Source of the DNA: Alphaproteobacteria bacterium | GTDB taxonomy: Bacteria > Pseudomonadota > Alphaproteobacteria > CAAHEQ01 > UBA3637 | Direction: 5' to 3' | Length of the DNA stretch: 64,000 bases | Assembly: GCA_017539265.1 (NCBI GenBank) | Contig: JAFYHG010000018.1 | Span: 8,779-72,778, forward strand | In this document: piece after piece, positions 42,912 through 63,650 of the stretch | Numbering within the stretch: the first letter of the stretch is position 1 | How the letters are laid out: each line of letters starts with the position of its first letter | Translations under genes and position numbers: made by a program | The notes under the pieces: generated by a model | Databases searched by the model: none | What the model was told of the DNA's origin: nothing | Seen by the model: the letters and a program-made list of their open reading frames with translations, nothing else

Positions 42912-43476
42912 AACATCCCCCATAATAAAACACTTTTTGTATTGTAAACAATTTTTTTCTAAATGCAAGTGTAAAAAAACGAACATTTTTATTGTCTGCT
43001 GAACTAAATATATTACGAACGTTTTTTAATATTGTTATATAAAATGATCAAAAAGATCTACAAACCGGATATCAAAAAATGCACTAAAAGTTCACCATAA
43101 AGTTCCATAAAAATTGTCCTAAAATCAATTTAAAAATGAGGATAAGAAAAGTGTTTGTTTGTGTCCAAGGATTGTGTCCACCCCTTGTTGCCAAGCAAAA
43201 TTCCCAATTTCAGGCATAAAAAAAGCCTTGATAAACAAGGCATTATTTTAAAAGTGGCGCGCCCGGCAGGAGCTTGGTGGAAAAGTGAAATAACCCACTG
43301 GATCAATTAAAAAATTTTTGGGCGATTTTTGAGGGTTTTCAGAAAGTGCCCAGGGGATGACAAGGGGTGATGAATGGACAAACTTCTTGATGTATTTCAG
43401 GGGTAATTTTACATAAGGATAAAAGTATATTTTGGATATCTGTCATAGGAGCACAGGTTGGGCAAAAAGGCATTTA

Positions 43477-43938
43477 TCAAAGATATTTCAAAAGACGCCT
43501 TGTAATTATGGATTGCCCCTCTTCATAAAGTCTGTCAAGGTACAAGCGTTTCGTAACTCCGTCATTTAAGTCCGAAATATTCCTTATTAGATTATGGACA
43601 CAGTCTATGGAGGGTTTTCTGTGTTCACAAAGGAGCATTCCAAAATAGTACTTGTTCTTGTTCAGGAACTGTTCACTGAACTGGTACTGGCTGTCTATAT
43701 ATCCTAATTTGCGGAGGTACTTATAGCATTTAGTTATAAATTGAGCATCTTCTGTTTGGTCAGAGTAAGGGGGATTGGAGAGTTCATCTGCAACCTCTTC
43801 ATCGACATTTTTGGTGTTTTTAGGTGCGGGTGGCACAAGTTCCTCCGGTGTATTCAGATGCTTTCTGATTTTCCTCATATTTTCGGCAATATCTTCAAAA
43901 CTTACAATCATGAATAATTTCCTTTTAGTAATAGACAT
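43477..43938 (-). CDS. Hypothetical protein
   Basis: It is a 153-aa ORF at the left end of island 2. Confidence 0.35.
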   Translation of the reverse strand: MSITKRKLFMIVSFEDIAENMRKIRKHLNTPEELVPPAPKNTKNVDEEVADELSNPPYSDQTEDAQFITKCYKYLRKLGYIDSQYQFSEQFLNKNKYYFGMLLCEHRKPSIDCVHNLIRNISDLNDGVTKRLYLDRLYEEGQSIITRRLLKYL

Positions 43939-43988
43939 CTGTATTTATAAAGAAAATGATTAAAAAATGGAATTTTTTAAAAAAGATC

Positions 43989-44017
43989 TTGGCTTTTAAA
44001 ATGATCGGCTATATAGT
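43989..44017 (+). promoter_or_regulatory. Promoter cassette TTGGCT-17-TATAGT followed by CCCGGGCC
   Basis: A 40-bp motif (CTTGGCTTTT.AAA..ATCGGCT.TAT..TCCCGGGCC) is also present at 47185-47223. Confidence 0.45.
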
Positions 44018-44060
44018 CCCGGGCCCCGGGCAAGACTGGGGTAACTGAAAGGATAAAAAT

Positions 44061-44432
44061 ATGCTGGAACAACAAATGATACAAAGCGATAACCTGAATA
44101 CCATTATGGCAAATTGCTATGGCACAGAGAATTATTACACAAACAACTATTTGAAATACAATTACACAGACGGAATTAAAACTTTCTGTGAACAGGCATC
44201 CGCTTATTGGTTATTGAGCCTTATCCAAGGGGTTTATACAAAATATCCTCAAATGCGGAAAGATTTAATTGCTATAACACTAATGGTAAATGATGACAAT
44301 ACTGCCATTATTACCTTTACCGATGAAAAAGGTCAATTTTATAAGCAGCGTATTCCTTATACGGATTGTCCGGTAGGAGAATGGAAATTTTATTTTGAAA
44401 ACAATGTATTTTTCTGGAATGGAGAATATTAA
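44061..44432 (+). CDS. Hypothetical protein
   Basis: It is a 123-aa ORF, first of three overlapping genes downstream of the cassette promoter. Confidence 0.4.
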   Translation: MLEQQMIQSDNLNTIMANCYGTENYYTNNYLKYNYTDGIKTFCEQASAYWLLSLIQGVYTKYPQMRKDLIAITLMVNDDNTAIITFTDEKGQFYKQRIPYTDCPVGEWKFYFENNVFFWNGEY

Positions 44433-44865
44433 TATGAATAAAGAACAAATTAAAGAAGCAATATTAGGGAAAAAAGATTGTCATGGGGAAGAAACACCTC
44501 TCTGTCAATTTTCAACATTCCATCCGGATATGGAAATGGTGGAGATATTATTAAAAGGTGCGGATATTAATAAATCTTTTAATCACCAACCGATGGCATG
44601 GGTATTTCAATTCTGTGAACCGAATTGGGATGAAATGCTCACGCTTTTGTTCAAATACAAATACCATGCCTTACATCTGGACAGGAAAAGCGATTTTGAA
44701 AGTTTACTGCAACTTTTATCCAGAGTTAAACCGGAAACCGTGATGTATGTCTTAAAAATAATGAAGAAACATAGGTTTCGACCGACATTTGAACAGATTG
44801 ATTACATAAATAAATCAAAAGAGGATTTTAAAAAGGAGTTTAAATGGAAAGACTGGGTGAAATGA
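44395..44865 (+). CDS. Hypothetical protein
   Basis: It is a 156-aa ORF that overlaps both neighbours (translational coupling). Confidence 0.4.
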   Translation: MKTMYFSGMENINMNKEQIKEAILGKKDCHGEETPLCQFSTFHPDMEMVEILLKGADINKSFNHQPMAWVFQFCEPNWDEMLTLLFKYKYHALHLDRKSDFESLLQLLSRVKPETVMYVLKIMKKHRFRPTFEQIDYINKSKEDFKKEFKWKDWVK

Positions 44866-45317
44866 CAAAAGGTTTGTTAAAAGCAATCAATGAAAGGAAT
44901 TGGCGAGAAATTAAAAGGCTGGTTCACTTGGGCGGAAACTTAAATGCCGCTTACGATCCGTTTGGAAATACACCCTTTTTATATGCCATGCATATTTTTA
45001 AGAAAGCGGAAGAAATTGAACGCTTGATTAAATTAGGTGGAGATGTGACCTATAAAAACAGGGTGGGAAAAACAGCCTTGATGATAGCAGTTGAAAATGG
45101 GTGTGAACCGATAACGCCTTGGGTTATGGTGGATTATGGAGCGGACATTAATGCACAGGATGCATTGGGAAACACCGCCTTAATGATTTGTTTAGAATCC
45201 AGATTATATACCAAGAAACTGCTTTATGCCCTGATAGATTACGGGGCAGATTTAACCAACCTGAAGAATAAGGAAGGGAAAACAGCGTTTGATATACTAT
45301 ATGATGAATTAGAGTAA
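44844..45317 (+). CDS. Ankyrin-repeat protein
   Basis: It has at least 3 ANK repeats (GNTPFLYAMHI.., GKTALMIAVENG.., GNTALMICLE.., GKTAFDIL). Confidence 0.7.
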   Translation: MERLGEMTKGLLKAINERNWREIKRLVHLGGNLNAAYDPFGNTPFLYAMHIFKKAEEIERLIKLGGDVTYKNRVGKTALMIAVENGCEPITPWVMVDYGADINAQDALGNTALMICLESRLYTKKLLYALIDYGADLTNLKNKEGKTAFDILYDELE

Positions 45318-45336
45318 TCACTTTTGCGGAGAAGTG

Positions 45337-47076
45337 TTAACTAATCCGCAAATCTTTAATAGTTAATTCTTTGGTATTATTATCTTGGGGAAAATCTTTC
45401 CTGTCTTTTTCCCCAAAACCATATTCTTTTCGGCAATTTTCTAATTTGTTCCAGTCTTGCACACGATATGCATAAAGAGCAGATCGGGGATACATAATAC
45501 GCTTTCTTTGTCCAACAAAGGGGATTGATGTCTTGGTTCGTTTCTTTTTATCCGCCATCCTCTTTTTTGCTAACCAACTGATACTTTTTTCCAGATAACT
45601 TGCAGCAACTTTAGGTGACATCCATCCTGCATGAAGTGCATAACGGAGATGTGGTGATCCACTTGGTTTCCCTTTTCCTTCCAATCCCAAAGATGATATA
45701 ACGGATTGATAATTATGACTTAAAAGCATTTCCTTAAATACTTCTTTTTCTCGTTCTCTTTGGGGAGTGTTTTCATTAGTATACGCAATATTAGCGATTG
45801 TTGATTTATCACTTAAAGTGCATTCCTCAAAATCAAATCTCTTTAAGAAAGAAATATTCTCCAGAACAAGGTTACATCCCTCAAAAGAAGTCTGACTAAA
45901 GGAAACATCTCCCCCGAAAAGAGTGTTCCTTATAATAAAGTGCCGACTTCTTGGCGTTGCGTTAAACTTCAATTCTGAATTATTTAATAAAAAGGCACTA
46001 GATCTATTAAAAATACAGTTATGGATATAAAAACTTGTGTGAAATAAACTATTTCTAAAATCAAACTTACCATTTACAGTGCACTGCTCAAATGTTATAG
46101 CGTGCTTAATTTCCCTTGCGGGTGCAAAATCTTTCTCAAAGAAGCAATGATTAAAAGTGACTCTTGCTCTTATCGCATCATGGGGACAGACATAGTTAGC
46201 GGAAAATAGACAATCTTTGAAGAAAACACCTTCCATTGGATTAAATGCCCCATGAAAGCATATCAAATTCCAAAAGAATTCCTGCTCTTTTCTACCAAAT
46301 TCTACATTTTCTATTATAATAATAGAGCGACAATATTCGGAAGGAACTATTTTATATTGATGAGGTTTCTTGATTGTCTTGGTTGCCTGCGGGTGTTGTA
46401 GAAATACAATCTTATCTATTTCCTTTTTAATTTCAGGAGATTTGGTTTGTTCCGCCAGCATATAAAAAGGAGTACGGATTTCTTTCAAAAAGTCTGGATA
46501 CAAAACGGTTGGCAAGTGTTTTGTCAGTTGAACGGGTGAATTTCCAAACTTTTTGAACAGGTAAAGCAGTTCTCTTAAAAAATATCTGCCATTATTACCG
46601 ACTTTAGTTCTTATTCGTGCTAATGCTCCGACCATTCCTTTGGCATCTGCTAGGTCTTCAATATCTTGTGTTGTAATTTTGCCTCTTTTGTAATCATCTG
46701 TATCAATTTCAAAACAGGCAGAAAAGATATCTTGGAAGGTACGGATACATAACCTTAATGTTTGGTCAACACCTATTGGGTAATAATCGGGATGCGTAAA
46801 TGCATCAGGATATCCCTTCTCTGGTTGTTTTGTTTTAATGTATGTTTGTAAAATGTTTGGATAGACATCCGTCCAAAAATCTAAATTCAAAGATTTGAAC
46901 CGACCTTCTGGTCCATAGACCAGTTCTTCTTGGTAATCTTCATCTAAAAAAAAGTTTGGGCGTTCCAGTTTCATAAAAAACTCATATAAGTTGAAAAAGT
47001 TGGGGGGATTATACCACAAAATCTCCCAAAAGTCCAGAAGAACAAGAAATGTTAAAAAATCCATCTTTTTTAACAT
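45337..47076 (-). CDS. Pentapeptide-repeat-containing protein (candidate effector)
   Basis: The C-terminal half is rich in (F/L/C)-x-x-x-F/N pentapeptide-like units (FNHCFFEKDFAPA..FEGCNLVLENISF). The N-terminus and start are uncertain. Confidence 0.5.
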   Translation of the reverse strand: MLKKMDFLTFLVLLDFWEILWYNPPNFFNLYEFFMKLERPNFFLDEDYQEELVYGPEGRFKSLNLDFWTDVYPNILQTYIKTKQPEKGYPDAFTHPDYYPIGVDQTLRLCIRTFQDIFSACFEIDTDDYKRGKITTQDIEDLADAKGMVGALARIRTKVGNNGRYFLRELLYLFKKFGNSPVQLTKHLPTVLYPDFLKEIRTPFYMLAEQTKSPEIKKEIDKIVFLQHPQATKTIKKPHQYKIVPSEYCRSIIIIENVEFGRKEQEFFWNLICFHGAFNPMEGVFFKDCLFSANYVCPHDAIRARVTFNHCFFEKDFAPAREIKHAITFEQCTVNGKFDFRNSLFHTSFYIHNCIFNRSSAFLLNNSELKFNATPRSRHFIIRNTLFGGDVSFSQTSFEGCNLVLENISFLKRFDFEECTLSDKSTIANIAYTNENTPQREREKEVFKEMLLSHNYQSVISSLGLEGKGKPSGSPHLRYALHAGWMSPKVAASYLEKSISWLAKKRMADKKKRTKTSIPFVGQRKRIMYPRSALYAYRVQDWNKLENCRKEYGFGEKDRKDFPQDNNTKELTIKDLRIS

Positions 47077-47185
47077 TGCTTTTAAAGGATTTGAAAAATA
47101 AGGCTATTTTATTTTAACCTATATGCCCCAAATTATGAAATGTTTAATTTTAAAGAAAAAACTTATATTTTTTAACATTTAGGGC

Positions 47186-47214
47186 TTGGCTTTTCAAAAA
47201 ATCGGCTGTATGCT
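47186..47214 (+). promoter_or_regulatory. Second copy of the promoter cassette (TTGGCT-17-TATGCT)
   Basis: It lies inside the 5' extension of track ORF 47186-47839, which argues for the later start. Confidence 0.45.
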
Positions 47215-47257
47215 CCCGGGCCGCAATAAAAGTTCAATTTTAACGAAAGGATACAAA

Positions 47258-47839
47258 ATGGTTAATCAAGTTTTTATTGACGACAAGAAAATTAAAGACA
47301 TCTTAACTTACATTCAGGGGATGAGACATGCTGAAATGATACGGATGATGTTTTTATGTTCACTGAATGGCATGAGGTCTATAAATTTCGCCTATCTCCA
47401 AGTAGGTGATGTTTATACTCCCGACTTTAAGGTTAAGGATGTCATTTGTTTGGATGCGGATAAAAATAAAGGAAAGTTCGGGTGTTCGTATTATCTTAAC
47501 AGCCAAATGAAGAAAGAGTTTAAGGAGTATTTAGGGTATTTGAAGGCTAAAAATGAAGAGATTACGCCAGAAATGTATTTGTTTACCTCACAAAAGATGG
47601 GAAAACCTTTCAACCGTGTGTCAATTTCACGGATGTTCGCAACCGTTTACAAAAAGTTCAACATTGAAGGAGCATCACACTTGGGGCGACATTTGTTCGT
47701 GAGTCGGCTTATCAATGCTGGAACTAATATCTGTTTGGTTCAGAAACTCGCCAACCATCGCAACATTGGCACAACCCAACGTTATTTTAATTATAACGAG
47801 AAAATGCTCTCAAATGCTGTGGAAAATGTAGTTTTATAG
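47258..47839 (+). CDS. FimB/FimE-like small tyrosine site-specific recombinase
   Basis: The 193-aa catalytic-domain-only architecture matches FimB/FimE. It aligns block-by-block with E. coli FimB/FimE (..LGRHLFVSRL.., ..LANHRNIGTTQRY). The start is set at ATG 47258 after the RBS GAAAGGATACAAA. Confidence 0.7.
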   Translation: MVNQVFIDDKKIKDILTYIQGMRHAEMIRMMFLCSLNGMRSINFAYLQVGDVYTPDFKVKDVICLDADKNKGKFGCSYYLNSQMKKEFKEYLGYLKAKNEEITPEMYLFTSQKMGKPFNRVSISRMFATVYKKFNIEGASHLGRHLFVSRLINAGTNICLVQKLANHRNIGTTQRYFNYNEKMLSNAVENVVL

Positions 47840-47850
47840 CTGTGTGGTAG

Positions 47851-48113
47851 CCTAAAAGTGTATATAATTTTAAGTTATATCTCTTTTTCTTCTTCTTGAA
47901 TTAGAACATGTTCTAATCCACAGAGTATTTTATAGATTCCGAGGAATCTTGTTTGAACTAGTAATTTTTTTAGTTCTTTAAATTTAGCATGTATTTGTAT
48001 CAAAATTATTTTTTCTTTAAAAATTTGATTGGAATTTTTCATAGTAATATCCTTTCTTAAAAAAATAAGGGAACATTAAAGTCCCCATCTATTTCAACTC
48101 ATACACTTTTAGG
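47851..48113. repeat. Perfect 13-bp inverted repeat pair flanking a 237-bp segment (candidate invertible switch or MITE)
   Basis: CCTAAAAGTGTAT lies at 47851-47863 and its reverse complement ATACACTTTTAGG at 48101-48113. The interior is AT-rich and holds the palindrome TTAGAACATGTTCTAA (47900-47915) and a 55-codon ORF on the minus strand (47874-48042). Confidence 0.6.
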
Positions 48114-48161
48114 TATTACATGTTATTTAATGATTGCGCCAAGTGTTTGATGCATTTGTTT

Positions 48162-49130
48162 TTATGGTGTTTTTTGTAATTTCTTAAATTGGTAAAATAC
48201 AGATGCCGGCGAAACACCGAAATAGTCGCCAATTTGTCTAAAACTCATTCCAGCTGTTTTCATTCGTACCAATTGTTTGCTATCCACTTTAAAGTCTTCC
48301 CAGCCTTTATTTTTAACTAAATCAAATTTTTTTATAACCCTGTAGATACTCGCTGGATGGGCATTTACCTTTTTTGCAATTTCTTTTCCCGAAACACCAG
48401 AAAAATACAATTTTTTTATAAGTTCTTCCTGCTTTCCCAACCGACTATTCAATTTAATTTGATCAGGTGTCCGGGTTAATCCCATTTTTTTAATTTCTTG
48501 TTCAAGAAGTTTATGAGAGCATCCTAATTTTTCTGCTATAAAGGAAATGGATCTTCCTTCAGCAAACATCTCTTTTATCTTATCCTTTTTAAGGTCTAAT
48601 TTCTTCAGTTTAGGTGCTTCTAAATTATGTAAAAGAATGAAATTATACAATGTTGAATAGCAAACATTATATTTTTGTGCAATGGCTTTTCTAGAGACAC
48701 CTTTTAATAATAGGTCTTGTATATCATCTTTATAGTGGTCTATTCTGGTCCAGTTATGGCGAGGTTCTGGTTTTAACCCCAATAATCTTTGTTCTTCTAA
48801 TGTTTTTTTGCCTTTTTTATAGACCTGTATACGATCAAGTGATGCGACATAAATACCGCTTTCTTTTTCAAATTTTATGAGTGTTCTGCGGCATATTTTC
48901 AATTTTTTACAGATATCTTCACGCGTTAGCCCTAATTTATAAAAATGTTTTATTTTTTCGGGATTAAGTTTTATTTCCCGAGTATGTGGTTCTCTTTTCC
49001 ACCCTAAATCTTTTAGATAATTACGAAGGGTAGAAAGACTTATATTCATACGATCCGCTATCCCGCCCAAGGAAAGGTCAGATTTGTAGAGTTCTTTTAA
49101 TTTGTCTATATCTAGTTCAATTTTGTTCAT
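48162..49130 (-). CDS. Protein made of six tandem Hin/resolvase-type HTH (HTH_7-like) domains
   Basis: The translation shows six units of about 50 aa, each with a G(V/M/R)S...IA...(V/C)S..T(L/V)Y..(L/I)KK(L/F) pattern. Confidence 0.55.
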   Translation of the reverse strand: MNKIELDIDKLKELYKSDLSLGGIADRMNISLSTLRNYLKDLGWKREPHTREIKLNPEKIKHFYKLGLTREDICKKLKICRRTLIKFEKESGIYVASLDRIQVYKKGKKTLEEQRLLGLKPEPRHNWTRIDHYKDDIQDLLLKGVSRKAIAQKYNVCYSTLYNFILLHNLEAPKLKKLDLKKDKIKEMFAEGRSISFIAEKLGCSHKLLEQEIKKMGLTRTPDQIKLNSRLGKQEELIKKLYFSGVSGKEIAKKVNAHPASIYRVIKKFDLVKNKGWEDFKVDSKQLVRMKTAGMSFRQIGDYFGVSPASVFYQFKKLQKTP

Positions 49131-49146
49131 TTATGGGCGGATTTTC

Positions 49147-49174
49147 AAAAAAAGCGGAGTATTTCTACTCCGCT
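49147..49174 (-). terminator. Rho-independent terminator downstream of TAA gene (minus strand)
   Basis: It has the hairpin AGCGGAGTA-loop-TACTCCGCT. A T-run follows on the minus strand. Confidence 0.6.
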
Positions 49175-49234
49175 CACTTAAATTAACTAATAGGAAGGGA
49201 GACCGAGAAATCAGTCTCCCCGGAGTTCTTCGCA

Positions 49235-52200
49235 TTAGAATCCAAAAGTCACACCGACTTTGTAGGACACGCTGTCGTTGCCACCATAGGCAGCACCGGC
49301 GTTCAACAATGTCCGGTCGTTGAGATAATGGAATGCACCAACAGCCAAGGCTTGGTTGTTCTTGTATCCGCCCAAAGCCGCACTGACTTGCGTTTTGTGG
49401 ACATGATCCAGAGGAACAAGACCTGCCAAAGCGTTGTTAGCAGCTAACCCGTTTTCCATCTTGGTTTCTAACTTGTTGATACGGCGATCAACGCGGGCGA
49501 ATTCAGCACCCAAGTTATCATTCAAGTTGGTCAAGAGGTCAGAAATGCTTGACGGATCACCAACGGCTTGTGCACCAACAGCACCACCATTAGCTTGTTC
49601 TTTTCCTTTAAAGAACTTTAAGTTCTCTAAAGAAGACAAATCGCCAACAGTTTCATCAACGGCTTCAAAAGCAGATTCTGTAGCTGATTCTAACAATGCA
49701 ATTTGGTTATCTGTGTAAGTATTAGCATTGGCCTCAGCTGTATCAGCAGCACCATATGCATCATATGTATTAGCTGCAATAGCACCACTGATAGATGTAA
49801 TCTTACCATCTGTTTCAACGATGTTCAAAGACAAACCATCAGCACCTGCTGCTTGTGATACATTAGCATCTAAAGCATTAACTTTACCATCTGCGTAAGT
49901 CTTTGCATCAGCCAAAGCATTAGCAGCAGCACCATATGCATCATATGTATTAGCTGCAATAGCACCGCTGATAGCTGTAATCTTACCATCTGTTTGTGTA
50001 ATACTTAATGATAAGCCATCAGCACCGGCTGCTTGTGATACATTAGCATCCAAAGCATTAACTTTACCATCTGCGTAATTTTTGGCATTGGTTTCTGCTG
50101 TATTAGCATAACCTTTTGCTTGAGTATTCACATAAGTAACTGCTTCTGCAAGAGAACCAACCTGTTCGGTTGATACTTCTAAAGCGGTACGCATTGTATC
50201 CAGATTACCGACACGGCTATCAAGACCTTTGATTTGTCCATCTAAAACAATGTCAGCACCTGTCAATGTTGTTGCAGCTGTCAGGTAGTTTGTATCGGCG
50301 TATTCGTTGTTAACTGCATTCGAATTGGCCGAAGTAATACCCAATGTGTTATCAACCCATTGTTGTTTCTCGTTGAAGATAGCTTCTGCTTCTGTCCGTG
50401 TATAGACATCTGCGAGATTTGCTTTGTTAGCATCCAAAGCATCCAAAGCACCACGAACTGTTGTCGTTGAGCCTTCGCCTTGCTTTAACACAGAACCGTC
50501 TACAGCTTCTTCATCCGCATAGTTAACATCACCGATGGTGTCATTTGTGCCTTTGATTTGCGCATCCAAAACAATGTCAGCACCTGTCAAGGTTGTTGCA
50601 TCCGTCAGGTAGTTTGTGTCGGCGTATTCGTTGTTAACTGCATTCGCATTAGCCGAAGTAATACCCAATGTGTCATCAACCCATTGTTGTTTTTGTGCAA
50701 AGATAGCTTCTGCTTCGCTTCTGACACCGGCAACAGCCGTTGTAACAGCGGTATTAATCTTGCCATCAACAACTTTGCCCAATGAATCATCATAGGCCGC
50801 TACACTAGCCTCATGAGTAGCTGTATCAGTTGTGAAGTTAGTATTAGCTGTTTGCAATGATCCTTCCCAATTATTCAGGTTAGTTACTGTTGCTTGGTCA
50901 GTCGCCATGGTAGTAGCAATCTTATCCTTATTTGCAACGCTGTCATCATAGTAACCTTTTAATTCGGATTGTCTATTGGCCAGAGCCGTTACATCAGATT
51001 CGTAAGCATTAACTAGGTCTGCTTTGATACCTGCTGTAGTTGCATCATCTGCTGATACTGCTGTTCCATTTTTCTTTAAGACATAGCCATCTTCTGACGC
51101 TTCGATGGTATAATGGTCACCTGCAGTATTCGTCAATTCATAATTGGCAATATCAACACTTCCAGTTCCTGCGCTAGATGCAGTGATATCAAGTTTACCA
51201 CCTAAATCACTCGTCTGAACTGTATCTGTTAATTCTGCAACCGCTGTGCTACCTGCGACAGAAGTAGAATTACCATCTTTATCATATGTGACATATGTAT
51301 AATCATCGGCAGTCAGAGTACCACTATCATAGGACAGGTCGGCCACAGCAGAAATACCATCTACAGTAGCAGCTGCAGAAGTTGCAGTGTAATCTGCCGA
51401 TGTATAGGAAGCACCAGCGACTAAATCTGTGGGATTACCTTCTGGATCTGTAAAGCCATAATCCGCGGCATCCGGTGCATCACCAGGAGCGTTTGCAGAA
51501 ATGCTTGACACTTTATCAGACAATGTCTTCAAAGCAGTGTCCAAAGCGGTATCAGCACCCGTCAAGGTTGTTGCAGCTGTCAGGTAATTTGTTCCGGTGT
51601 ATTCGTCGTTAACTGCATTCGCATTAGCCGAAGTAATACCCAATGTGTTATCAACCCAGGTTTGCTTTTCGTTGAAGATAGCTTCTGCATTATCCCATAA
51701 TGTTCCCAAAGCGGTATCTGTATAGTTTTTCGCATAAGTCTTTGCATTTGCTTCAGCTGTATTCGCTTTCGTTGTTGCATCAGTAGCAGCGGCTGTAATC
51801 GCTTCGGATTTAGCAGTAGCAGCAGCACCATAAGCATCATATGTATTTGCAGCAATGCTACCAGAAATACCAGTAATCACACCATTTTCTTGAGTGATGC
51901 TCAAAGCCAATTGACCATTACCTGCGGCTGCAGCTTGAGTTTCTGTTGCATTCAAAGCATCAATTGCATCACCAACTGTTTTGCTCACAGAACCATCGCC
52001 TGTACCATTCAAGGTAGCAATAGCGCTCTCGTTTGTTGTGATTTTACCTACAAGAGTAGAAGTAATACCAGAGTTGACGGCAGCTAATTGTTCTGTTCCC
52101 AATTTTGCTTGGTATGTATTCGCCAAATCTAAAGCATCAATTGCATCACCAACTGTTTTGCTCACAGAACCATCGCCTGTACCATTCAAGGTAGCAATAG

Positions 52201-52726
52201 CATCTGCATTGGCTTTAACCTGTGTATCCAATAACTTATCTGCGCCAGCCATTGTTGTTGCGCCTGTCAGATAATTTGTACCGGTATACGCATTTGTTAC
52301 CCCAGTTGTTCCGGTGGATAAATCAACGCCCAATGTTTTCTGGGAAATGACACCACCTGTTAATTCTACAAAATCACCAACAGCAGTATTGACAACGGCA
52401 TAATCACCAGCATCTGAACTACCCGCTAGCAATTGTGCTAAAGCATCACGAGTGTATTTGGGGTGAGCCGCTGCAAAATCTGCATCAATGGTGTAATCTG
52501 TTCCACCAAGATTTGTAGTGTAGGTGTCTGTCCCCGTTGTGATGGCTGTATGAAAATTAGTTAAGTTTGTTGCAACTGAAGCAGTAGGGTCATAAGCCTC
52601 ATCTGCTGCCTTTGCACCTGTGGCAACGATTAAGCCCACTGCAAAGGCATTAAGCAGAAAACATTTCTTCAAAACACTACGGTATCTCGCAGAAAGTTCT
52701 CTGATTGTTGTTTTTGTATATTTCAT
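49235..52726 (-). CDS. Trimeric autotransporter adhesin (YadA-like), 1163 aa, island-encoded
   Basis: It has a signal peptide, a Thr/Ala/Gly-rich passenger domain with long internal repeats, and a C-terminal anchor (ALGGYKNNQALAVGAFHYLNDRTLLNAGAAYGG...VGVTFGF) homologous to the C-terminus of the 1-2417 gene. Confidence 0.8.
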   Translation of the reverse strand: MKYTKTTIRELSARYRSVLKKCFLLNAFAVGLIVATGAKAADEAYDPTASVATNLTNFHTAITTGTDTYTTNLGGTDYTIDADFAAAHPKYTRDALAQLLAGSSDAGDYAVVNTAVGDFVELTGGVISQKTLGVDLSTGTTGVTNAYTGTNYLTGATTMAGADKLLDTQVKANADAIATLNGTGDGSVSKTVGDAIDALDLANTYQAKLGTEQLAAVNSGITSTLVGKITTNESAIATLNGTGDGSVSKTVGDAIDALNATETQAAAAGNGQLALSITQENGVITGISGSIAANTYDAYGAAATAKSEAITAAATDATTKANTAEANAKTYAKNYTDTALGTLWDNAEAIFNEKQTWVDNTLGITSANANAVNDEYTGTNYLTAATTLTGADTALDTALKTLSDKVSSISANAPGDAPDAADYGFTDPEGNPTDLVAGASYTSADYTATSAAATVDGISAVADLSYDSGTLTADDYTYVTYDKDGNSTSVAGSTAVAELTDTVQTSDLGGKLDITASSAGTGSVDIANYELTNTAGDHYTIEASEDGYVLKKNGTAVSADDATTAGIKADLVNAYESDVTALANRQSELKGYYDDSVANKDKIATTMATDQATVTNLNNWEGSLQTANTNFTTDTATHEASVAAYDDSLGKVVDGKINTAVTTAVAGVRSEAEAIFAQKQQWVDDTLGITSANANAVNNEYADTNYLTDATTLTGADIVLDAQIKGTNDTIGDVNYADEEAVDGSVLKQGEGSTTTVRGALDALDANKANLADVYTRTEAEAIFNEKQQWVDNTLGITSANSNAVNNEYADTNYLTAATTLTGADIVLDGQIKGLDSRVGNLDTMRTALEVSTEQVGSLAEAVTYVNTQAKGYANTAETNAKNYADGKVNALDANVSQAAGADGLSLSITQTDGKITAISGAIAANTYDAYGAAANALADAKTYADGKVNALDANVSQAAGADGLSLNIVETDGKITSISGAIAANTYDAYGAADTAEANANTYTDNQIALLESATESAFEAVDETVGDLSSLENLKFFKGKEQANGGAVGAQAVGDPSSISDLLTNLNDNLGAEFARVDRRINKLETKMENGLAANNALAGLVPLDHVHKTQVSAALGGYKNNQALAVGAFHYLNDRTLLNAGAAYGGNDSVSYKVGVTFGF

Positions 52727-53005
52727 TAACTATACCTTTCTTTTTAATATTAAAATTAAAGTTACGAGGAGTTCTCTTTTTCAAAACCCTCGTCCGTCAT
52801 CTTACACAAATGTTCCTTTATGAAATGATTTGAAGAAAAGTGATAAAAATAGCATACTTTTGTCTTATATATTATTGTATTTTCAATATGTTATATTCAA
52901 TTTTAATTTTTTTAAAAAAAATGTTAAAAAATGTTTGCAATTTAAGGAACTATTTTTTGCATATGAAATTATCGGCAATAAATAACTTTAACAAAAGGAT
53001 ACAAA

Positions 53006-53617
53006 ATGGCAACTATCGCATATATCAGGGTTAGCAGCGATAAACAAACCTGTTCTAACCAACACTTTACGATTAAAGAATACACAAAATCTCACAATAT
53101 CCACATTGATAAATGGGTTGAAGAGACTATTTCCAGCAAGAAACCTTTGGAAAAGCGGGAATTAGGCGTATTATTAAATAAAATGGATAAAGGCAGTTTA
53201 TTAATTGTAACGGAAATCAGCCGTCTTGCCCGTAATCTATACGAATTGGCGGGCATATTGCAAAATGCTATTAAGAACGACATTACTGTTATTAGTATCA
53301 AGGAAAACTATCAGTTCAAAAATGATATCCAGTCCAAAATTATGGCATATACTTTTGGGCTTGCCGCAGAAATTGAGCGTGATTTGATCTCAACCCGCAC
53401 TAAAATGTCATTGGATAAATTAAAAAAGCAAAATGTTAAATTAGGCAGACCATTCGGGGCGGAGACAAAATGTTTAAAACTATCCAAAAACCGCAAGAAA
53501 ATAAGGGAATTATTAGGAAAAGGTGTCAGTCAGGCCAAAATATCCAAAATCCTTGGCGTCCACCCGACAACCATGTGCCGGTTCTTGAAACGAGTGGATG
53601 TGTCAACCTGTTCCTGA
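53006..53617 (+). CDS. Serine recombinase (resolvase/invertase family, Hin/Gin-like)
   Basis: It has an N-terminal catalytic motif (IAYIRVSSDKQ), a small resolvase-type catalytic domain and a C-terminal HTH (GVSQAKISKILGVHPTTMCRFLKR). Confidence 0.8.
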   Translation: MATIAYIRVSSDKQTCSNQHFTIKEYTKSHNIHIDKWVEETISSKKPLEKRELGVLLNKMDKGSLLIVTEISRLARNLYELAGILQNAIKNDITVISIKENYQFKNDIQSKIMAYTFGLAAEIERDLISTRTKMSLDKLKKQNVKLGRPFGAETKCLKLSKNRKKIRELLGKGVSQAKISKILGVHPTTMCRFLKRVDVSTCS

Positions 53618-53852
53618 TGGGAATGTTCCTCGCCAAAAGGCGGCTAACCACTTTGTTTTTGATCTTGTATGACGGCATCAGGCAGTTTAATCCCACTTAT
53701 TATACAAAAGCCCTCTATTTTAATCCCAAATAAAAGGAATCTATTATCAAATTCACCTCTATAATAGTTCTATTTTATTTCTATTATAATTCTATTATAG
53801 GAACAAAAAACACCCAGATAGGCCTTGTGTTTATTGGCGTTTCTCAAATTGT

Positions 53853-54060
53853 ACCGAACATAACAGTCTCCGCTACCGAACATATGGGCACCGGGAGCGA
53901 ACATATGAGCATCGCTAGCGAACATAACAGTCTCCAAAATTGCCCAAACCGAACATATAAGCATCGCCCCCCTAAAAAACGAACATATCAACCTCTAGCG
54001 AATAATTTTTTTGTAAATCGGTGAAATCCATCATCGAGCGAATAAATACCCCTGTAAATC
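53853..54060. repeat. Iteron-like direct repeat array (six (C/G)CGAACATA units at 21-31 bp spacing plus two degenerate GCGAATAA units)
   Basis: The repeats begin at 53853, 53875, 53897, 53918, 53949, 53979 and at 53998 and 54046. They are preceded by an AT-rich block of TCTATTATA/CTATAATAG 9-mers at 53750-53800. Confidence 0.6.
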
Positions 54061-54076
54061 AATTTTAGGAGGTTTT

Positions 54077-54589
54077 ATGAGTAAAAGTAAATCAGATTTG
54101 TCCCTCACAAAGCGTGTGTTGTTGGACTTTGTAAAATTTAAGACCCAAAACGGGCATCAATTCTTTGCGAGCAACGAGTATATTGCCAAAGGTTTAGATC
54201 TAACCGAGAATACTGCCAAGACATTTGTTAATGACCTTATAAGAGAAGGATACCTTTATAAAGAGATAGATAAGAGAGGCATGAGAATTTTATCCCTAAC
54301 CGGTAAGGAATACAAACCATTGTTTGAAGATTTGAGGAACTTTGATAAGAAAGTACTTAAAGAGGACAGAGATAACTTTCAAAGGGATAACAAATATTTG
54401 AACCAACAGTTAGAACAGGAAACAGCATATAAGGAACAACTATTAAACGAAAATACAGATTTAGTCCTTTCCAATGCTGAACTAACCCATCGTGTTCAGG
54501 AACTGGAAAAGAGAGTTACTGCTTTGGAGAACATCTTTTATAAAAATGGAATGACAAAGGAACAACTGGAGGATTTATTGAATAAATAA
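54077..54589 (+). CDS. Winged-helix DNA-binding protein with C-terminal coiled coil (candidate iteron-binding Rep/regulator)
   Basis: The N-terminal 85 aa are wHTH-like. The C-terminus has a heptad leucine pattern. A strong SD (AGGAGG) precedes it, directly downstream of the iteron array. Confidence 0.45.
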   Translation: MSKSKSDLSLTKRVLLDFVKFKTQNGHQFFASNEYIAKGLDLTENTAKTFVNDLIREGYLYKEIDKRGMRILSLTGKEYKPLFEDLRNFDKKVLKEDRDNFQRDNKYLNQQLEQETAYKEQLLNENTDLVLSNAELTHRVQELEKRVTALENIFYKNGMTKEQLEDLLNK

Positions 54590-54632
54590 AAATGTGGGCA
54601 TGCTTTCAACCACACTTCATAAAAATACACCC

Positions 54633-55022
54633 TCAACTCTCGTTGAGGGTTTTTGCTTGTTTCTGTTGATCCAATGCCCAATCCAGAATCTGTTTCCTTC
54701 GTTCAAAGGCATTCTCTTTCGGGAACTTTTCTTCATAGCGGTCAAGCATAGCGTAAAGCAAAAGTGAAGCAAACGGATTCTTGTTAAATGCGGCATAATC
54801 CCTGGCAGTCCAACCTCTATAATCCATATAATTCGGATTTGCTCCATGTTCCAGCAGATATTCAACAACCGTCAAGTCACCCGATAGCATACAACAAACT
54901 TGAAGTATTGATGACAATTGAGTGTTTATCGGTTGATTGATATCATCCAGTAGCGACACAACATACTTAACATCCTCAATTGTATCTACAAATACTTCAT
55001 CTTTATCTTCCTGATTTTCCAT
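54633..55022 (-). CDS. Ankyrin-repeat protein (short)
   Basis: It has an ANK-like unit (VVEYLLEHGANPNYMDYRGWTARDYAA). Confidence 0.5.
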   Translation of the reverse strand: MENQEDKDEVFVDTIEDVKYVVSLLDDINQPINTQLSSILQVCCMLSGDLTVVEYLLEHGANPNYMDYRGWTARDYAAFNKNPFASLLLYAMLDRYEEKFPKENAFERRKQILDWALDQQKQAKTLNES

Positions 55023-55606
55023 TTTTTGCCTCCGTTCTTTTGAAATCTAGTAAAAATTTAGCAACTGCCTTTTGATATTCAACCTTTTCCGGTTCTAGTA
55101 ACTCTTCGTATATATCTAGCAATTTCTCCAAAGTATCCTTTAATTTATCTTCGGGCGTATGCCTTAAAGTGAACTGAACCGCTTTTAATAAAGACATTCC
55201 CAACATTATTGCTCCTTTTCATCTCTGATGATCTGCTCCATGCATATTTTCATGGCATTTAATATTCTTTCTGCTATCATTTTGACTCCTTTATTTTAAT
55301 TCAAGGATATTTATCGGGGCGATTTCAAAATGGAATCATTTTCAAAAAACGAATCCTTTTTGAGCCGATTTGGGGGATTTTAGATTATTTTTGAAGAAAT
55401 TCCCCGAAAAAACATTCAAAAAAATACCCCCCTTTTTCATTTTTTTTACATCAATATCCATCAATATCGCCATTTTTACATCAATATAGATTCCCTTCAA
55501 AAAAAAGTTATTGCGGCAATTTTATTTCTGGATATTCTTTTGCTTACCAATGCGGGGTGGTCTCGCAAAGGTGCCAACAATCTAACGAAAAGAAAGGAAA
55601 TTAAAA

Positions 55607-56113
55607 ATGTTAGAAAATACAGAAAATCAAACCATGGAATCCTTTATGAGTTCCTTTGGGATTGTTCCCATGACAACCATTAAGGATGAAGGATTGCTTT
55701 CATTCGACAATTGCAAAGACAGAATTCTGAAAATGATTGAATTAAATATTCAGAACTTTAAGAACAATCTTTGGAACGAGAGAAATTACATGATGAAGAT
55801 GCTGGTTGACCTTGATCCAAAGCGTAATAAATCCATTTGCACAGTCCGTTTAGGCGGCAAAAGGGTTTATAAATGCAATTGTGAAACCTTAAACACACCG
55901 AGAAAAGTTGAATTTTTAACCAAGTTCTATGAAGGCGTTTCCAGAGGGTTCTTGGATAAAAAGATTACGGAATTCTGTGAACGACAGGTTGCTTTGGCAG
56001 AAGACCGTAAGAAAATCCAACGGGAAAAGCGTAAAGCACAAAGAAAAGCAGATCGTGAAGCCTTAAAAAAGCAAGAGGCTGAAGTGCAATCACATCAGCC
56101 CCACATTGCTTGA
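55607..56113 (+). CDS. Hypothetical protein with basic C-terminus
   Basis: It is a 168-aa ORF whose C-terminus is Lys/Arg-rich (KKIQREKRKAQRKADREALKKQEAE). Confidence 0.4.
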   Translation: MLENTENQTMESFMSSFGIVPMTTIKDEGLLSFDNCKDRILKMIELNIQNFKNNLWNERNYMMKMLVDLDPKRNKSICTVRLGGKRVYKCNCETLNTPRKVEFLTKFYEGVSRGFLDKKITEFCERQVALAEDRKKIQREKRKAQRKADREALKKQEAEVQSHQPHIA

Positions 56114-56356
56114 TTATTTAACAGAGAGTGGAAAACTGGAACTTTTTCACTCTCATAACCTAACAAAAGGAATTATACTATGACTGAAATTAAAAGTCAA
56201 ATAAAAATGCGTGATGTATTGCGGCAACTCCATCAACCGGAAGAGGTCTACAGGGAATATCTTTATAGTTCTGAAGATGAGCAAAGATTTTTAGAACATG
56301 TTGTGGACACAATTTTAACCAAGGGCTATATGCCGGCATAAGAAAGGAGGTAAAAG

Positions 56357-56926
56357 ATGAAAAATATTGAAGAGATGACCTTAAAAGAGGCAATAGACGA
56401 ATTATCAGAAATGCTTTTGGATTACTTGCCGGACAATGATGATAACGACAGATTTGAGGAACTATATGAAAAAATTAGAGAAGAAGTAGATGATATAGAT
56501 GTTGATACAAAAGATTTTATAGCACATGTGGAGTTTTATCCACTTGATGGAGATGAGATATATGAAACAGACACCAATATTATCTCTGGAGATTTTTTTG
56601 ATTGGCGGCATTCAAGTGACTTTGGTCCGCCAGCAGAAGCATGGCTCGCGGTTTTTAATGCCAGTCAGTGTTCACTTCAAAAAAAGTGTGCAACTTATCC
56701 TTTGGAAAAGATTCAAAAAGAATTGACAGATGATGTGTTGCAAAAGGTCTTCAAGGGACATGGTTTAGTAGATTTTAGATACCTATTGGCAAATCCTCGT
56801 AAGGATGTCGTGGGATGGGCATTGAAGCACAAGTATGAACTTAATTTCAGAGGTATACCACCAGAGTTCATAGAGGAGCGTCAGGCAATTCCTGAACTAA
56901 AGGAACTTATCTTAAAGACCTTATAA
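56357..56926 (+). CDS. Hypothetical acidic protein
   Basis: It is a 189-aa ORF with an Asp/Glu-rich N-terminal half and a good RBS (AAGGAGG). Confidence 0.4.
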   Translation: MKNIEEMTLKEAIDELSEMLLDYLPDNDDNDRFEELYEKIREEVDDIDVDTKDFIAHVEFYPLDGDEIYETDTNIISGDFFDWRHSSDFGPPAEAWLAVFNASQCSLQKKCATYPLEKIQKELTDDVLQKVFKGHGLVDFRYLLANPRKDVVGWALKHKYELNFRGIPPEFIEERQAIPELKELILKTL

Positions 56927-57006
56927 AAAAACAGAGCAAATTCCATAAAGGGCTTGACATTTGCGACCTGATCTGATCAGATCGCGATCCTTAAAAGGGA
57001 GAATGA

Positions 57007-58779: not shown

Positions 58780-59089
58780 AAGGGCAAAGGTGTTCAAAAT
58801 ACATTTTAGGCAACCGTCATGGGAATCATATTAGGGTGTTCAAGCGGTAAAAAATCCAAAAGGTGAAATGGTATCAATGTCATCAAAAAGTTCGTGGCAA
58901 AAAGTTTAGGATGAAAGGGGTTGATGAAAGTGTTTTTGAATAGCCAGATAATGCTGAAAACTAGCTGTAAAAAGCACATGTCACAGAAGTCTTTGTGTCC
59001 AAGGATTGTGGCCAACCCCTGTGGCCAAGCAAAATCACCCTGTTTCAGGCACAAAAAAAGCCTTGATAAACAAGGCATTATTCTAAAAG

Positions 59090-59166
59090 TGGCGCGCCCG
59101 GCAGGATTCGAACTTACAACCTTCTGATCCGTAGTCAGATGCTCTATCCAATTGAGCTACGGGCGC
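59090..59166 (-). tRNA. tRNA-Arg (anticodon ACG)
   Basis: A 77-nt cloverleaf was folded by hand: acceptor GCGCCCG/CGGGCGC, D-arm GCTC..GAGC, anticodon stem TCTGA/TCAGA with loop CTACGGA, T-loop TTCGAAT, and a CCA encoded. The T-stem has one A-C mismatch. Confidence 0.8.
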
Positions 59167-63644: not shown

Positions 63645-63650
63645 CTACCT

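Follow-up and report, generated by a model that had tools for sequence, protein, structure and literature searches.

The gene at positions 48162..49130 (minus strand) of the window—that is, of the whole 64-kb stretch of DNA analyzed—encodes a 322-residue protein, here called 6xHTH, that is composed solely of six tri-helical HTH domains. Relatives of this protein in uncultured gut and rumen Alphaproteobacteria are under purifying selection and are encoded beside a serine invertase and genes for surface structures. Given this constant neighborhood, 6xHTH probably acts as a regulator, hitherto undescribed, that is linked to surface variation. From context and analogy, which are the whole basis on which we infer a function, the reading we tentatively prefer is that of a sequence-specific DNA-binding regulator that would recognize a long site and be co-expressed with the invertase-associated surface operon.

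Architecture of the six-HTH protein

The composition of the protein was observed with both Pfam and AlphaFold2 (AF2). Six distinct stretches matched HTH_7 (E 7.8e-22; 77.6 bits, cutoff 23.8), which was the best-scoring family, with HTH_38, HTH_23, and HTH_28 scoring about equally. In the AF2 model (mean pLDDT 77, pTM 0.29), a three-helix unit recurs six times, at residues 8-42, 57-91, 126-167, 179-216, 230-268, and 285-320, together with one spacer helix and no further fold. Among the best 25 of the 60 Pfam families matched at E≤10, the Resolvase catalytic domain (PF00239), any DDE/rve domain or catalytic remnant, and the Pipsqueak domain HTH_psq (PF05225) were all absent; the Resolvase domain is carried by the neighbor at 53006-53617. 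The original prediction, made from the sequence, of a protein built only of six Hin/resolvase-like HTHs that fold as such, with no serine-recombinase catalytic domain, is thus borne out, and the three peptides it gave as examples correspond to units 3, 6, and 4. The plus strand of the same interval is full of stops. The features of the gene and protein are as follows.

48162..49130, minus strand: 6xHTH gene (open reading frame with an ATG start, 322 aa, stop codon included; Pfam, AF2, orthologues)
48996..49118, minus strand: HTH unit 1, aa 5-45 (AF2 helices 8-16/21-27/32-42; best HTH_7 stretch 6-41)
48849..48971, minus strand: HTH unit 2, aa 54-94 (AF2 helices 57-65/70-77/81-91)
48783..48839, minus strand: long spacer helix between units 2 and 3, aa 98-116 (AF2; kept in the family alignment)
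48621..48764, minus strand: HTH unit 3, aa 123-170 (AF2; recognition helix S/A-T-x-Y/F-N-F-I)
48474..48605, minus strand: HTH unit 4, aa 176-219 (AF2; variable recognition helix)
48318..48452, minus strand: HTH unit 5, aa 227-271 (AF2; variable recognition helix)
48165..48290, minus strand: HTH unit 6, aa 281-322 (AF2; conserved recognition helix N-T-V-F-Y-R-x-K-K-L)

Offsets in a self-comparison gave an HTH period of ~48-53 aa, so the predicted repeat every 50 aa holds along most of the array but fails between units 2 and 3, which are ~77 aa apart; the spacer helix lies here and divides the array into two plus four units. The protein is strongly basic (70 K+R, 39 D+E, net charge ~+31), with no signal peptide and no recognizable secretion motif, and its gene has a GC content of 32% versus 42% for the window. 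Searches with PADLOC, PHROGs, and plasmid tblastn returned generic HTH matches only.

Like the C-terminal DNA-binding domain of Hin/Mpi-type invertases, 6xHTH has HTH_7 as its best Pfam match, and the HTH of the neighboring invertase, along with the preceding K-L-x-K-x3-I-x2-L arm, aligns with the 6xHTH units (15-33% identity). Unit 3, which has the most conserved recognition helix of the family, is Hin-like and is the unit matched by the Hin DNA-binding domain (1HCR; E 0.008). However, such invertases have one HTH and a Resolvase domain, unlike the six tandem copies without a catalytic domain in 6xHTH. The closest characterized relatives are Cbp1 and Cbp2 (NF040595; PDB 2LVS), archaeal proteins with two to three HTHs that bind CRISPR repeats and that, like 6xHTH, are composed of tandem tri-helical HTHs with basic linkers and no other domain. 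Cbp2 (2LVS) matched units 4-5 and their linker with an E of 1.3e-12, the NCBIfam Cbp1 model NF040595 scored 73.4 bits (below its cutoff of 140), and 2LVS was the best Foldseek match of the model, with Tc3 and the paired domain also among the fold matches. Owing to the flexible links between its domains, the chain as a whole had no Foldseek match with E<0.05. By sequence comparison, 6xHTH is a distant bacterial relative of these proteins; they differ from it in being crenarchaeal, with two (Cbp2) or three (Cbp1) repeats, and in being tied to CRISPR arrays, whereas the six repeats of alphaproteobacterial 6xHTH are found with surface operons and a serine invertase. The 64-kb window was found to contain neither a CRISPR array nor a CRISPR repeat family.

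The statement that no family with this arrangement has been described holds for bacteria but not for the tandem unit itself, which is homologous to that of archaeal Cbp1/Cbp2. Cbp1 homologues have been described as confined to the Sulfolobales (PMC3597662), and the kinship suggests a greater age and a wider distribution for the tandem-HTH architecture than that description implies. A literature search on bacterial tandem-HTH arrays yielded nothing relevant. Among eukaryotic proteins, Pipsqueak (Psq) has a four-repeat domain of tandem homeodomain-like HTHs that reads an extended site. Psq, Myb, and paired/Tc3 all resemble 6xHTH in reading such a site with two to four tandem homeodomain-like HTHs, but each is a eukaryotic protein or a transposase, has fewer repeats, and carries extra domains. 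Nor is the six-HTH architecture unique: tandem-HTH arrays are frequent in proteins that lack annotation, with 7,293 representatives reaching E≤1e-3 and ~850 reaching E≤1e-10, and extend up to 4,460 aa, such that thousands of poly-HTH proteins are unnamed. At 322 aa, 6xHTH is a small representative of this large class, which could be of interest for protein engineering because of the way its modules would recognize long DNA sites.

Conservation of the family and its genomic cassette

A search for six-fold HTH homologues and their context found full-length relatives in ~15 sequence clusters, with intact open reading frames of 314-349 aa that align collinearly at 27-70% identity, and found the invertase adjacent in every lineage with usable context (8/8). 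The named members are all from Alphaproteobacteria metagenome-assembled genomes (MAGs), and a genome scan for further loci identified two MAGs only; the matches listed by a metagenome scan comprised a single fragment, which was irrelevant. In the four pairs for which dN/dS was estimable, values of 0.19-0.28 were obtained, demonstrating purifying selection. Signatures of the individual units are retained across 15 sequences, with units 3 and 6 conserved and units 4 and 5 variable; since each unit has a retained signature of its own, the units are old specialized modules rather than the products of a recent expansion. These observations leave next to no likelihood that 6xHTH is a non-functional remnant—that is, a transposase or recombinase fragment, or duplicated HTH debris. 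Single units do weakly match the HTHs of IS630, IS1, IS21, and IS3 transposases, far below cutoffs, but the conservation and the purifying selection effectively rule out a degraded N-terminal fragment or a pseudogene, outcomes that the original prediction had named among those that would overturn it, and no DDE or catalytic leftover was present among the same 25 best-matching Pfam families.

In the window, the gene lies in a cassette on a genomic island, with the following neighbors.

53006..53617, plus strand: serine DNA invertase of the Mpi family, 203 aa, oriented divergently to the adhesin gene (NCBIfam NF009949)
49235..52726, minus strand: trimeric autotransporter adhesin (1163 aa, YadA anchor), the variable cargo
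47258..47839, plus strand: short tyrosine recombinase (193 aa), convergent with the 6xHTH gene
43158..59166, no strand assigned: ~16-kb genomic island with the cassette (~115-nt direct repeats, tRNA-Arg, integrase)
57007-58779: island integrase

The invertase adjoining the 6xHTH gene is intact in seven of the eight lineages and degenerate in one. The window invertase matched NF009949 over its full length with 240.8 bits (cutoff 272); the four invertases scanned, all matching over the full length, ranged from 225 to 274 bits against the same cutoff, and that of lineage L028 is named as Mpi family by NCBI. A link to the neighboring recombinases had also been proposed, and it stands for the serine invertase but not for the tyrosine recombinase, which is not consistently adjacent elsewhere, being seen in one other lineage (L005) at a distance of 4.6 kb.

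In all eight lineages, 6xHTH and the surface-structure cargo were observed to share a transcription unit and an orientation. The cargo itself varies: the window has a trimeric autotransporter, two lineages have autotransporters of the Pmp type, and five have large polysaccharide operons (10-20 kb). In these last five, 6xHTH is the first or second gene; its coding sequence overlaps neighboring genes by 8 nt of stop/start codons in four, as seen from the gene coordinates, and directly abuts the downstream gene in the fifth. Two cassettes were found in MAG GCA_015062395.1, and both include a separate invertase and a separate 6xHTH paralogue; cross-regulation between loci requires several loci per genome, and this is the one MAG in which such a genome was seen.

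The island, which is low in GC, lies between direct repeats of ~115 nt, at 43158-43271 and 58992-59106, which overlap the tRNA-Arg gene (59090-59166) at its 3′ end. Host-interaction or eukaryote-like genes are plentiful, with ankyrin repeats and MORN on the island itself and a serpin and a tyrosine phosphatase in related islands; a secretion system was not found in the 6xHTH neighborhood. In lineage L034, a 326-aa open reading frame with HTH_38 was considered as a divergent second paralogue and rejected, being an IS30-family transposase (HTH_38 plus rve) that fails the family profile.

Transcription signals and candidate switch regions

The following signals were located around the 6xHTH and adhesin genes.

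49152..49221, minus strand: pair of GC-rich hairpins in tandem, after the adhesin stop and before the 6xHTH ATG (terminator scan; fold z = -5.2)
48069..48086, minus strand: terminator-like hairpin downstream of the 6xHTH gene (terminator scan)
52727..53005, no strand assigned: invertase-adhesin intergenic region, the candidate switch region
52936..52961, no strand assigned: imperfect 12-2-12 palindrome TGCAAAAAATAG-TT-CCTTAAATTGCA (alignment with the P0003 lineage)
52764..52793, minus strand: 5′-UTR stem-loop upstream of the adhesin gene (same position, different sequence in L005 and L010)

The second of the tandem hairpins (49175-49152) is a terminator with a T-run, ~15-20 nt from the 6xHTH ATG, and equivalent hairpins are present at L005 and L010. 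As the pair leaves no room for a separate promoter, 6xHTH would be transcribed by read-through from the adhesin gene, of which so strong a double hairpin could let very little pass.

Promoter-like sites directed toward the adhesin gene occur in the intergenic region (TTAACA-16-TAAAAT, 52927-52900). Its inverted repeats (IRs) are not above chance, 80 of 200 shuffles reaching the observed score, so that the window cassette is no more than a candidate for phase variation; by the same shuffle comparison, the IRs of L005 and L010 are also at the chance level. The palindrome sits in the only block of the region that is conserved with the P0003 lineage, and an IR pair of L005 is homologous to it (29 nt, 79% complementary), making it a candidate invertase-binding or operator site.

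Other lineages have clearer repeats. The invertase-proximal IR of L031, with 13/15-nt arms and 124 nt between them, was equaled in 1 of 200 shuffles, and two sites of L018, AAACC-TT-GGTTT and AACC-AA-GGTTT, in 12 of 200; the second L018 site overlaps a TTGACT-17-TACAAT promoter. We call the L018 sites hix-like on what we take to be the hixL sequence, for which a length of 26 bp and the function of its 2-bp core were confirmed. In L028, the repeats flank the invertase gene, as in the Hin system, where the invertase gene is inside the IR-flanked segment. The invertible segments predicted from these repeats are 52819-52943 and 52764-52898 in the window, 7239-7362 in L031, 123-937 in L028, and the stretch from the first to the second site in L018. 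Assemblies were observed to break at IRs in two polysaccharide-type lineages, independently and exactly at the right IR arm, contigs of other samples beginning there (L032 at 7363; L029, L030, and L044 all at 951). No flipped contig was found among the contigs of the window lineage, ~8 contigs of the P0003 lineage, L013 compared with L018, and the L028 invertase contigs. Two recurrent breaks, L005:6263 and L013:7642, lack a partner IR and were thus not used as evidence of switching, and the break at L034:2196 was discarded because the flanking repeats are the termini of the IS30 transposase element. A shared-motif search over eight switch regions was marginal, with a score of 68 versus shuffle maxima of 65-67.

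A proposed long-site regulator and competing explanations

In the regulatory reading, the six individually specialized, Hin/homeodomain-like HTH modules and their basic linkers would form a DNA reader, and invertase and 6xHTH together a conserved module attached to interchangeable surface operons for adhesins or polysaccharides. 6xHTH would be made only when the operon promoter fires, in the window by way of terminator read-through. Cbp2, with two HTHs and a basic linker, binds ~25 bp, or ~12 bp per HTH (PMC3597662); by analogy, at ~12 bp per module, 6xHTH may read a composite site of ~70 bp. By binding this site, 6xHTH would link the expression state of its locus with other DNA transactions; the likeliest of these is control of transcription at alternative surface loci, by auto- or cross-regulation, as with UpxZ, FljA, and MrpJ. 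FljA and MrpJ/PapX are regulators that are co-transcribed with phase-variable surface genes and silence the alternative program; those of the Salmonella Hin system (FljA) and of Proteus and E. coli fimbrial operons (MrpJ/PapX) are unrelated to 6xHTH and have a single DNA- or RNA-binding domain.

With respect to the capsule loci of Bacteroides, these have locus-specific regulators with one paralogue per locus (PMC11685472, PMC10403206), and upxY/upxZ stand first in capsule operons behind Mpi-controlled invertible promoters (PMC11685472)—the position of 6xHTH in the polysaccharide loci. The likeness is one of functional and positional analogy only: UpxY is a NusG paralogue from another phylum with no sequence or fold kinship to 6xHTH, for which neither NusG/KOW nor UpxZ homology was found among the best 25 of 60 Pfam families or in NCBIfam. 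Trans-inhibition of the UpxY/UpxZ kind is hypothetical for 6xHTH. If the regulatory reading is true, 6xHTH would represent a new class of regulators for phase-variable surface systems beyond the Bacteroides, Salmonella, and E. coli models, and gut Alphaproteobacteria would package an invertase and a poly-HTH regulator as a portable module, attachable to adhesins or capsules and found here on a tRNA-integrated island.

A more specific and rather speculative version, which we regard as rather unlikely, is that the six modules, at ~12 bp each, make 6xHTH the factor that gives each invertase-controlled surface cassette its locus identity. A common element would be bound by units 3 and 6 as an anchor, units 4 and 5 would provide locus specificity, and the expressed cassette would lock its own switch and/or silence the others. 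Such a factor would be an independently evolved alphaproteobacterial equivalent of the UpxY/UpxZ exclusivity circuit of Bacteroides; it would also give tractable entry to the thousands of uncharacterized poly-HTH proteins, which might form a programmable DNA-recognition scaffold.

A direct role in recombination, as the accessory or directionality factor that the original prediction had put forward as a candidate, is less likely than that of a co-expressed long-site regulator, and we give it perhaps one chance among several. Here, the six HTHs would bind invertase half-sites or wrap the short segment between the IRs (~105-140 bp), helping or blocking Mpi-type synapsis, and production in the ON state only would lock or bias the switch, much as FimE is controlled by orientation or as Hin requires Fis and its enhancer. 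Fis is largely gammaproteobacterial, and 6xHTH hosts could accordingly need a different architectural factor. The constant adjacency of the invertase, the alignment of the repeats with the invertase HTH and its N-terminal arm, and the Hin-like recognition helix of unit 3 all fit such a role, as do the findings that invertases are the only other open reading frames of the neighborhood to match the 6xHTH profile and that three related sites occur in both L018 and L031, one at each arm (left and right) and a further copy a short way downstream, amounting in L018 to six half-sites. However, no co-variation was seen between the identities of the invertases and those of the 6xHTH proteins (Mantel r 0.13, p 0.16), as exemplified by L018 and L037, whose invertases are 73% identical but whose 6xHTH proteins are 35% identical; and the recognition helices of units 3 and 6 stay constant while IR sequences differ among lineages. 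In L034, moreover, 6xHTH is intact beside an "invertase" that lacks the YxRVS catalytic motif and any Pfam Resolvase match, with an IS30 element between the genes. The Mantel result and the L034 case both speak against a partnership that is strictly cognate. Mpi-family invertases are also vastly more numerous (>7,500 clusters versus ~15), arguing against any general need for 6xHTH.

The kinship with Cbp1/Cbp2 is what recommends another, improbable explanation, in which 6xHTH is a chromatin or processivity factor that coats sites along the AT-rich, horizontally acquired operon and, like Cbp1 or UpxY, ensures full-length transcripts by suppressing cryptic promoters and terminators or countering silencing. 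Cbp1 is known to promote long transcripts from AT-rich CRISPR arrays (PMC10883916, PMC3315313), and 6xHTH heads long polysaccharide operons and, in the window, lies on a low-GC island. Against this, seven operons contain no dispersed repeated motif above shuffle expectation, the window has no CRISPR array, and in adhesin-type loci the gene is placed downstream of its cargo, behind terminators, an odd position for a factor serving cargo transcription. It is more doubtful still, to the point of being far-fetched, that 6xHTH is a secreted nucleomodulin, a TALE-like reader of eukaryotic host DNA in a rumen protist or animal cell. The eukaryote-like genes of this and related islands and the highly basic, modular nature of the protein would suit that role, but neither the protein nor its neighborhood offers a means of secretion of the kinds sought (signal peptide, recognizable motif, neighboring system). 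The invariant link to a bacterial invertase and the reading frames that overlap those of polysaccharide operons indicate, rather, a bacterial DNA target.

Domain architecture and relatives of the six-HTH protein

The gene under study, termed 6xHTH after the six helix-turn-helix (HTH) units of its product, lies in the window as follows:

48162-49130, minus strand: 6xHTH open reading frame (ORF), ATG start, 322 aa

The opposite (plus) strand of this interval contains stops throughout. Pfam comparison matched the protein in six separate stretches to HTH_7, the resolvase HTH (E 7.8e-22), as the best repeat type, with HTH_38, HTH_23, and HTH_28 scoring nearly equally, and neither the Resolvase catalytic domain nor a DDE domain was among the best 25 of 60 Pfam families. 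An AlphaFold2 model built on a six-sequence alignment placed three-helix bundles at residues 8-42, 57-91, 126-167, 179-216, 230-268, and 285-320 (units 1-6), with a long helix (98-116) between units 1-2 and units 3-6; the mean pLDDT was 77, and the low pTM (0.29) is in keeping with domains that fold independently and are joined by flexible linkers. The protein is strongly basic (70 K+R vs 39 D+E), and the GC content of its gene is 32%, compared with 42% for the window. The original prediction of an ORF encoding six HTH domains and no catalytic domain was thus confirmed, as was the HTH fold of the repeats; its one correction concerns the tandem repeat, said to recur every 50 aa, the spacing of which proved in a self-comparison not to be strictly 50 aa.

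Word-indexed searching across 5.8 billion proteins returned only six clusters with relatives. An exhaustive profile search, covering 1.84 billion representatives, yielded about 12 full-length ones (320-350 aa) matching the whole profile, and a second indexed search added further relatives. All named members are from uncultured "Alphaproteobacteria bacterium" metagenome-assembled genomes from herbivore gut or rumen samples. Fifteen sequences align collinearly from end to end (27-70% identity), with each of the six units retaining its own signature; the recognition helices are most conserved in unit 3 (S/A-T-x-Y/F-N-F-I) and unit 6 (N-T-V-F-Y-R-x-K-K-L), and most variable in units 4 and 5. Together with pairwise dN/dS values of 0.19-0.28 (the four pairs allowing estimation), this collinear conservation and these signatures effectively rule out a pseudogene or transposase fragment, either of which would have overturned the original prediction.

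The top NCBIfam model for 6xHTH was HTH_Cbp1, at 73 bits (under the 140-bit cutoff). Cbp1 is a three-HTH CRISPR-repeat-binding protein of the Sulfolobales, the group to which its homologues had been considered restricted (PMC3597662). In a profile search of PDB sequences, the two-HTH protein Cbp2 (2LVS) ranked first (E 1.3e-12), with the alignment spanning two consecutive units and the intervening linker, and 2LVS was also the top Foldseek match, with further bipartite HTH proteins (AraC-type regulators, Tc3, and the paired domain) ranking next. Two HTHs and a basic linker bind ~25 bp in Cbp2 (PMC3597662), and by scaling from this value, six units would span roughly 70-75 bp. Whereas Cbp1 and Cbp2 contain two or three HTHs, 6xHTH contains six and is bacterial; it is a new six-unit bacterial form of these tandem-HTH proteins. 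The architecture is not unique, as there is a large population of unnamed tandem-HTH proteins: at E<=1e-3 the profile search matched 7,293 representatives, of which 846 reached E<=1e-10. These include proteins of 500-4,460 aa in which as many as ten stretches matched, such as the unnamed many-unit proteins P0015 (1557 aa), P0020 (818 aa), P0036 (1043 aa), and P0119 (4460 aa). Literature searches found no paper describing bacterial tandem-HTH arrays; the original statement that no such family had been described therefore stands for bacteria, but not with respect to the related Cbp1 and Cbp2 or to uniqueness. In P0020, many near-identical HTH repeats of ~55 aa recall TALE-like arrays.

Association with Mpi-type invertases and surface-structure genes

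In every lineage with enough flanking DNA, a serine recombinase of ~200 aa adjoins 6xHTH, which is co-oriented with a surface-structure gene or operon (the cargo), so that the recombinase and surface-gene context noted in the window recurs among the six-fold homologues. In the window, the invertase (53006-53617) and a trimeric autotransporter (49235-52726) diverge from a 279-bp intergenic region (IGR), with 6xHTH following the autotransporter. The lineages named for proteins P0003 and P0005 share this layout, with Pmp-type autotransporters as cargo. In those of P0006, P0175, P0178, P0016, and P0158, the cargo is a polysaccharide operon of 10-20 kb in which 6xHTH occupies the first or second position; the operon genes encode glycosyltransferases, epimerases, DegT, UDP-glucose dehydrogenase, PEP mutase, and proteins for MBOAT/AlgX-like acetylation. 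By gene coordinates, 6xHTH shows 8-nt stop/start overlaps with its neighbors in P0006, P0175, P0178, and P0016, and in P0158 the downstream gene begins directly after its stop codon. The four recombinases scanned gave full-length matches to the "master DNA invertase Mpi family" model of NCBIfam (NF009949), with scores of 225-274 bits (cutoff 272), and the recombinase of locus L028 is also assigned to this family by NCBI's own naming.

Assembly GCA_015062395.1 contains two complete cassettes on separate contigs, one adhesin-type and one polysaccharide-type, each with a separate invertase and 6xHTH paralogue. As the same pair accompanies differing cargo, the invertase and 6xHTH form the constant part of the cassette and the cargo is interchangeable. 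This association of 6xHTH with Mpi-type invertase cassettes is conserved and previously undescribed. Mpi-family invertases, at >7,500 clusters (E<=1e-60), far outnumber the 6xHTH family, which makes 6xHTH a rare addition rather than an obligate cofactor.

Several loci show further variation. Directly upstream of 6xHTH, some contain either a small gene of the XRE type or a resolvase-like ORF of 199 aa. The latter, in L031 (7409-8008), lies between the putative switch and 6xHTH, overlaps the 6xHTH start, and weakly matches the Resolvase catalytic domain (E 2.8e-4, below cutoff) but has no HTH. Its product may be a second, degenerate recombinase with a regulatory function. In L034 (400-2224; P0016 lineage), the invertase-like gene lacks the YxRVS active-site motif and any Resolvase domain match, and the insertion of an IS30-family element, which has terminal inverted repeats of 27 nt, separates it from the operon. 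The polysaccharide genes and 6xHTH are still intact, so the cassette may be "locked". Two samples (L038, 1-209; L037, 4027-6708) differ beside the invertase by an insertion or deletion of ~2.7 kb carrying hipA/HTH_3 (HipBA-like toxin-antitoxin) and NUDIX genes.

Candidate switches and the proposed role of 6xHTH

The 209-bp IGR of L018/L013 contains two palindromic sites, GTTTAAACC-TT-GGTTTTTAGAC and CTTTTAACC-AA-GGTTTTGATAC, with complementary 2-bp cores, the second lying between the -35 and -10 elements of a near-consensus promoter (TTGACT-17-TACAAT), and a third related site 39 bp downstream. We take these sites to resemble the hix sites of Hin. The hix site is 26 bp long, and its 2-bp core sets orientation (PMC4817059). 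In L031, the inverted-repeat arms CGCAAACCAACGT and ACGTTGGTTTACG are 124 nt apart, with a third copy just downstream. The observed repeat was matched in 1 of 200 dinucleotide shuffles for L031 and 12 of 200 for L018, and by the same measure the inverted repeats in the IGRs of the window, L005, and L010 were not above chance. Arms of 15/17 nt surround the invertase gene itself in L028, a layout resembling that of Hin. Furthermore, independent assemblies break exactly at the arms. L032 begins at L031:7363, where the right arm has its inner edge, and L029, L030, and L044, each from a different sample, share a start at L028:951, within the right arm. No contig in flipped orientation was recovered in any lineage compared. 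Inversion is thus indirectly supported in two polysaccharide-type lineages, and that of the window cassette is unproven. A break of L036 at L034:2196, considered as a third case, was dropped as it coincides with the end of the IS30 element.

The best-supported reading, which we hold tentatively at somewhat below even probability, is that 6xHTH would be a sequence-specific, long-site DNA-binding regulator, expressed together with the invertase-associated surface operon and coupling the state of its own locus to other DNA transactions. As to its role, transcriptional auto- or cross-regulation would be favored on four grounds: 6xHTH holds a position like that of upxY/upxZ (PMC11685472), one genome contains several cassettes, L034 retains an intact 6xHTH next to its degenerate invertase, and the invertases and 6xHTH proteins do not co-diverge (Mantel r 0.13, p 0.16). 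The original prediction is partly supported, in its six HTHs and recombinase neighbor; the role it proposed as an accessory factor for the neighboring recombinases is rather unlikely. In favor of that role, the units resemble the invertase's own DNA-binding domain, the switch regions contain three related sites, and synapsis of segments as short as 105-140 bp would plausibly depend on an architectural protein. Cbp1-like binding along the operon is highly improbable, as seven operons contain no dispersed repeats above shuffle expectation.

Expression and the integrative island

The interval from the adhesin stop codon (49235) to the 6xHTH ATG (49130) contains two strong hairpins, the second being:

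49175-49152: canonical terminator with T-run (terminator scan; fold z = -5.2)

An equivalent GC-rich hairpin is found in L005 and L010. The T-run lies just 15-20 nt from the ATG, and orthologues show a conserved N-terminus, leaving no room for a separate promoter; 6xHTH would therefore be transcribed from the adhesin unit by read-through of the terminator, presumably at a reduced level. Such an arrangement commonly separates structural from downstream genes in fimbrial operons. A stem-loop ~40 nt upstream of the adhesin/autotransporter start occurs at the same position with different sequence in three lineages (window 52764-52793; L005 about 6764-6783; L010 about 2137-2158), indicating conserved structure, not sequence; it could be an mRNA-stabilizing 5′ hairpin or an attenuator. 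The start regions of the tyrosine recombinase (47236-47261) and serine invertase (52984-53009) share 24 of 26 nt (AAxTTTAACxAAAGGATACAAAATGG), covering the ribosome-binding site and start codon of both genes. This match, significant within the window (BLAST E about 1e-4) and absent in the L005 lineage, could reflect a shared translational/transcriptional control element or a small gene conversion.

The cassette sits on a ~16 kb island integrated at tRNA-Arg:

43158-43271 and 58992-59106: direct repeats, ~115 nt, 91-94% identical, bounding the island and overlapping the 3′ end of tRNA-Arg
59090-59166: tRNA-Arg
57007-58779: DUF6538-type tyrosine integrase, at one end of the island

As the repeats bracket ~16 kb with an integrase, the whole invertase-adhesin-6xHTH cassette belongs to an integrative island, which also bears ankyrin and other host-interaction genes. 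A 579-aa ORF (45337-47076, minus strand), with no Pfam match at E<=1e-3, neighbors ankyrin-repeat and DUF6876 genes. Beside the left att copy, a 296-nt direct repeat (38361-38656 and 43234-43529; 83% identical) suggests that the same site had earlier taken up, in tandem, a second low-GC island (about 38.3-43.2 kb). Two sets of DUF6626 and integrase genes are also present in the related locus L005. The adhesin gene contains several internal DNA repeat families (49709-52201; 167-180 nt, 80-90% identity), one of them a perfect 71-nt duplication (51954-52024 and 52131-52201). They are likely substrates for variation in stalk repeat number. Ordinary core-genome features lie on either side of the low-GC region:

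63286-63652, minus strand: RNase P RNA, class A (283 bits)
38108-38226, minus strand: rpsB leader sRNA motif (47 bits)
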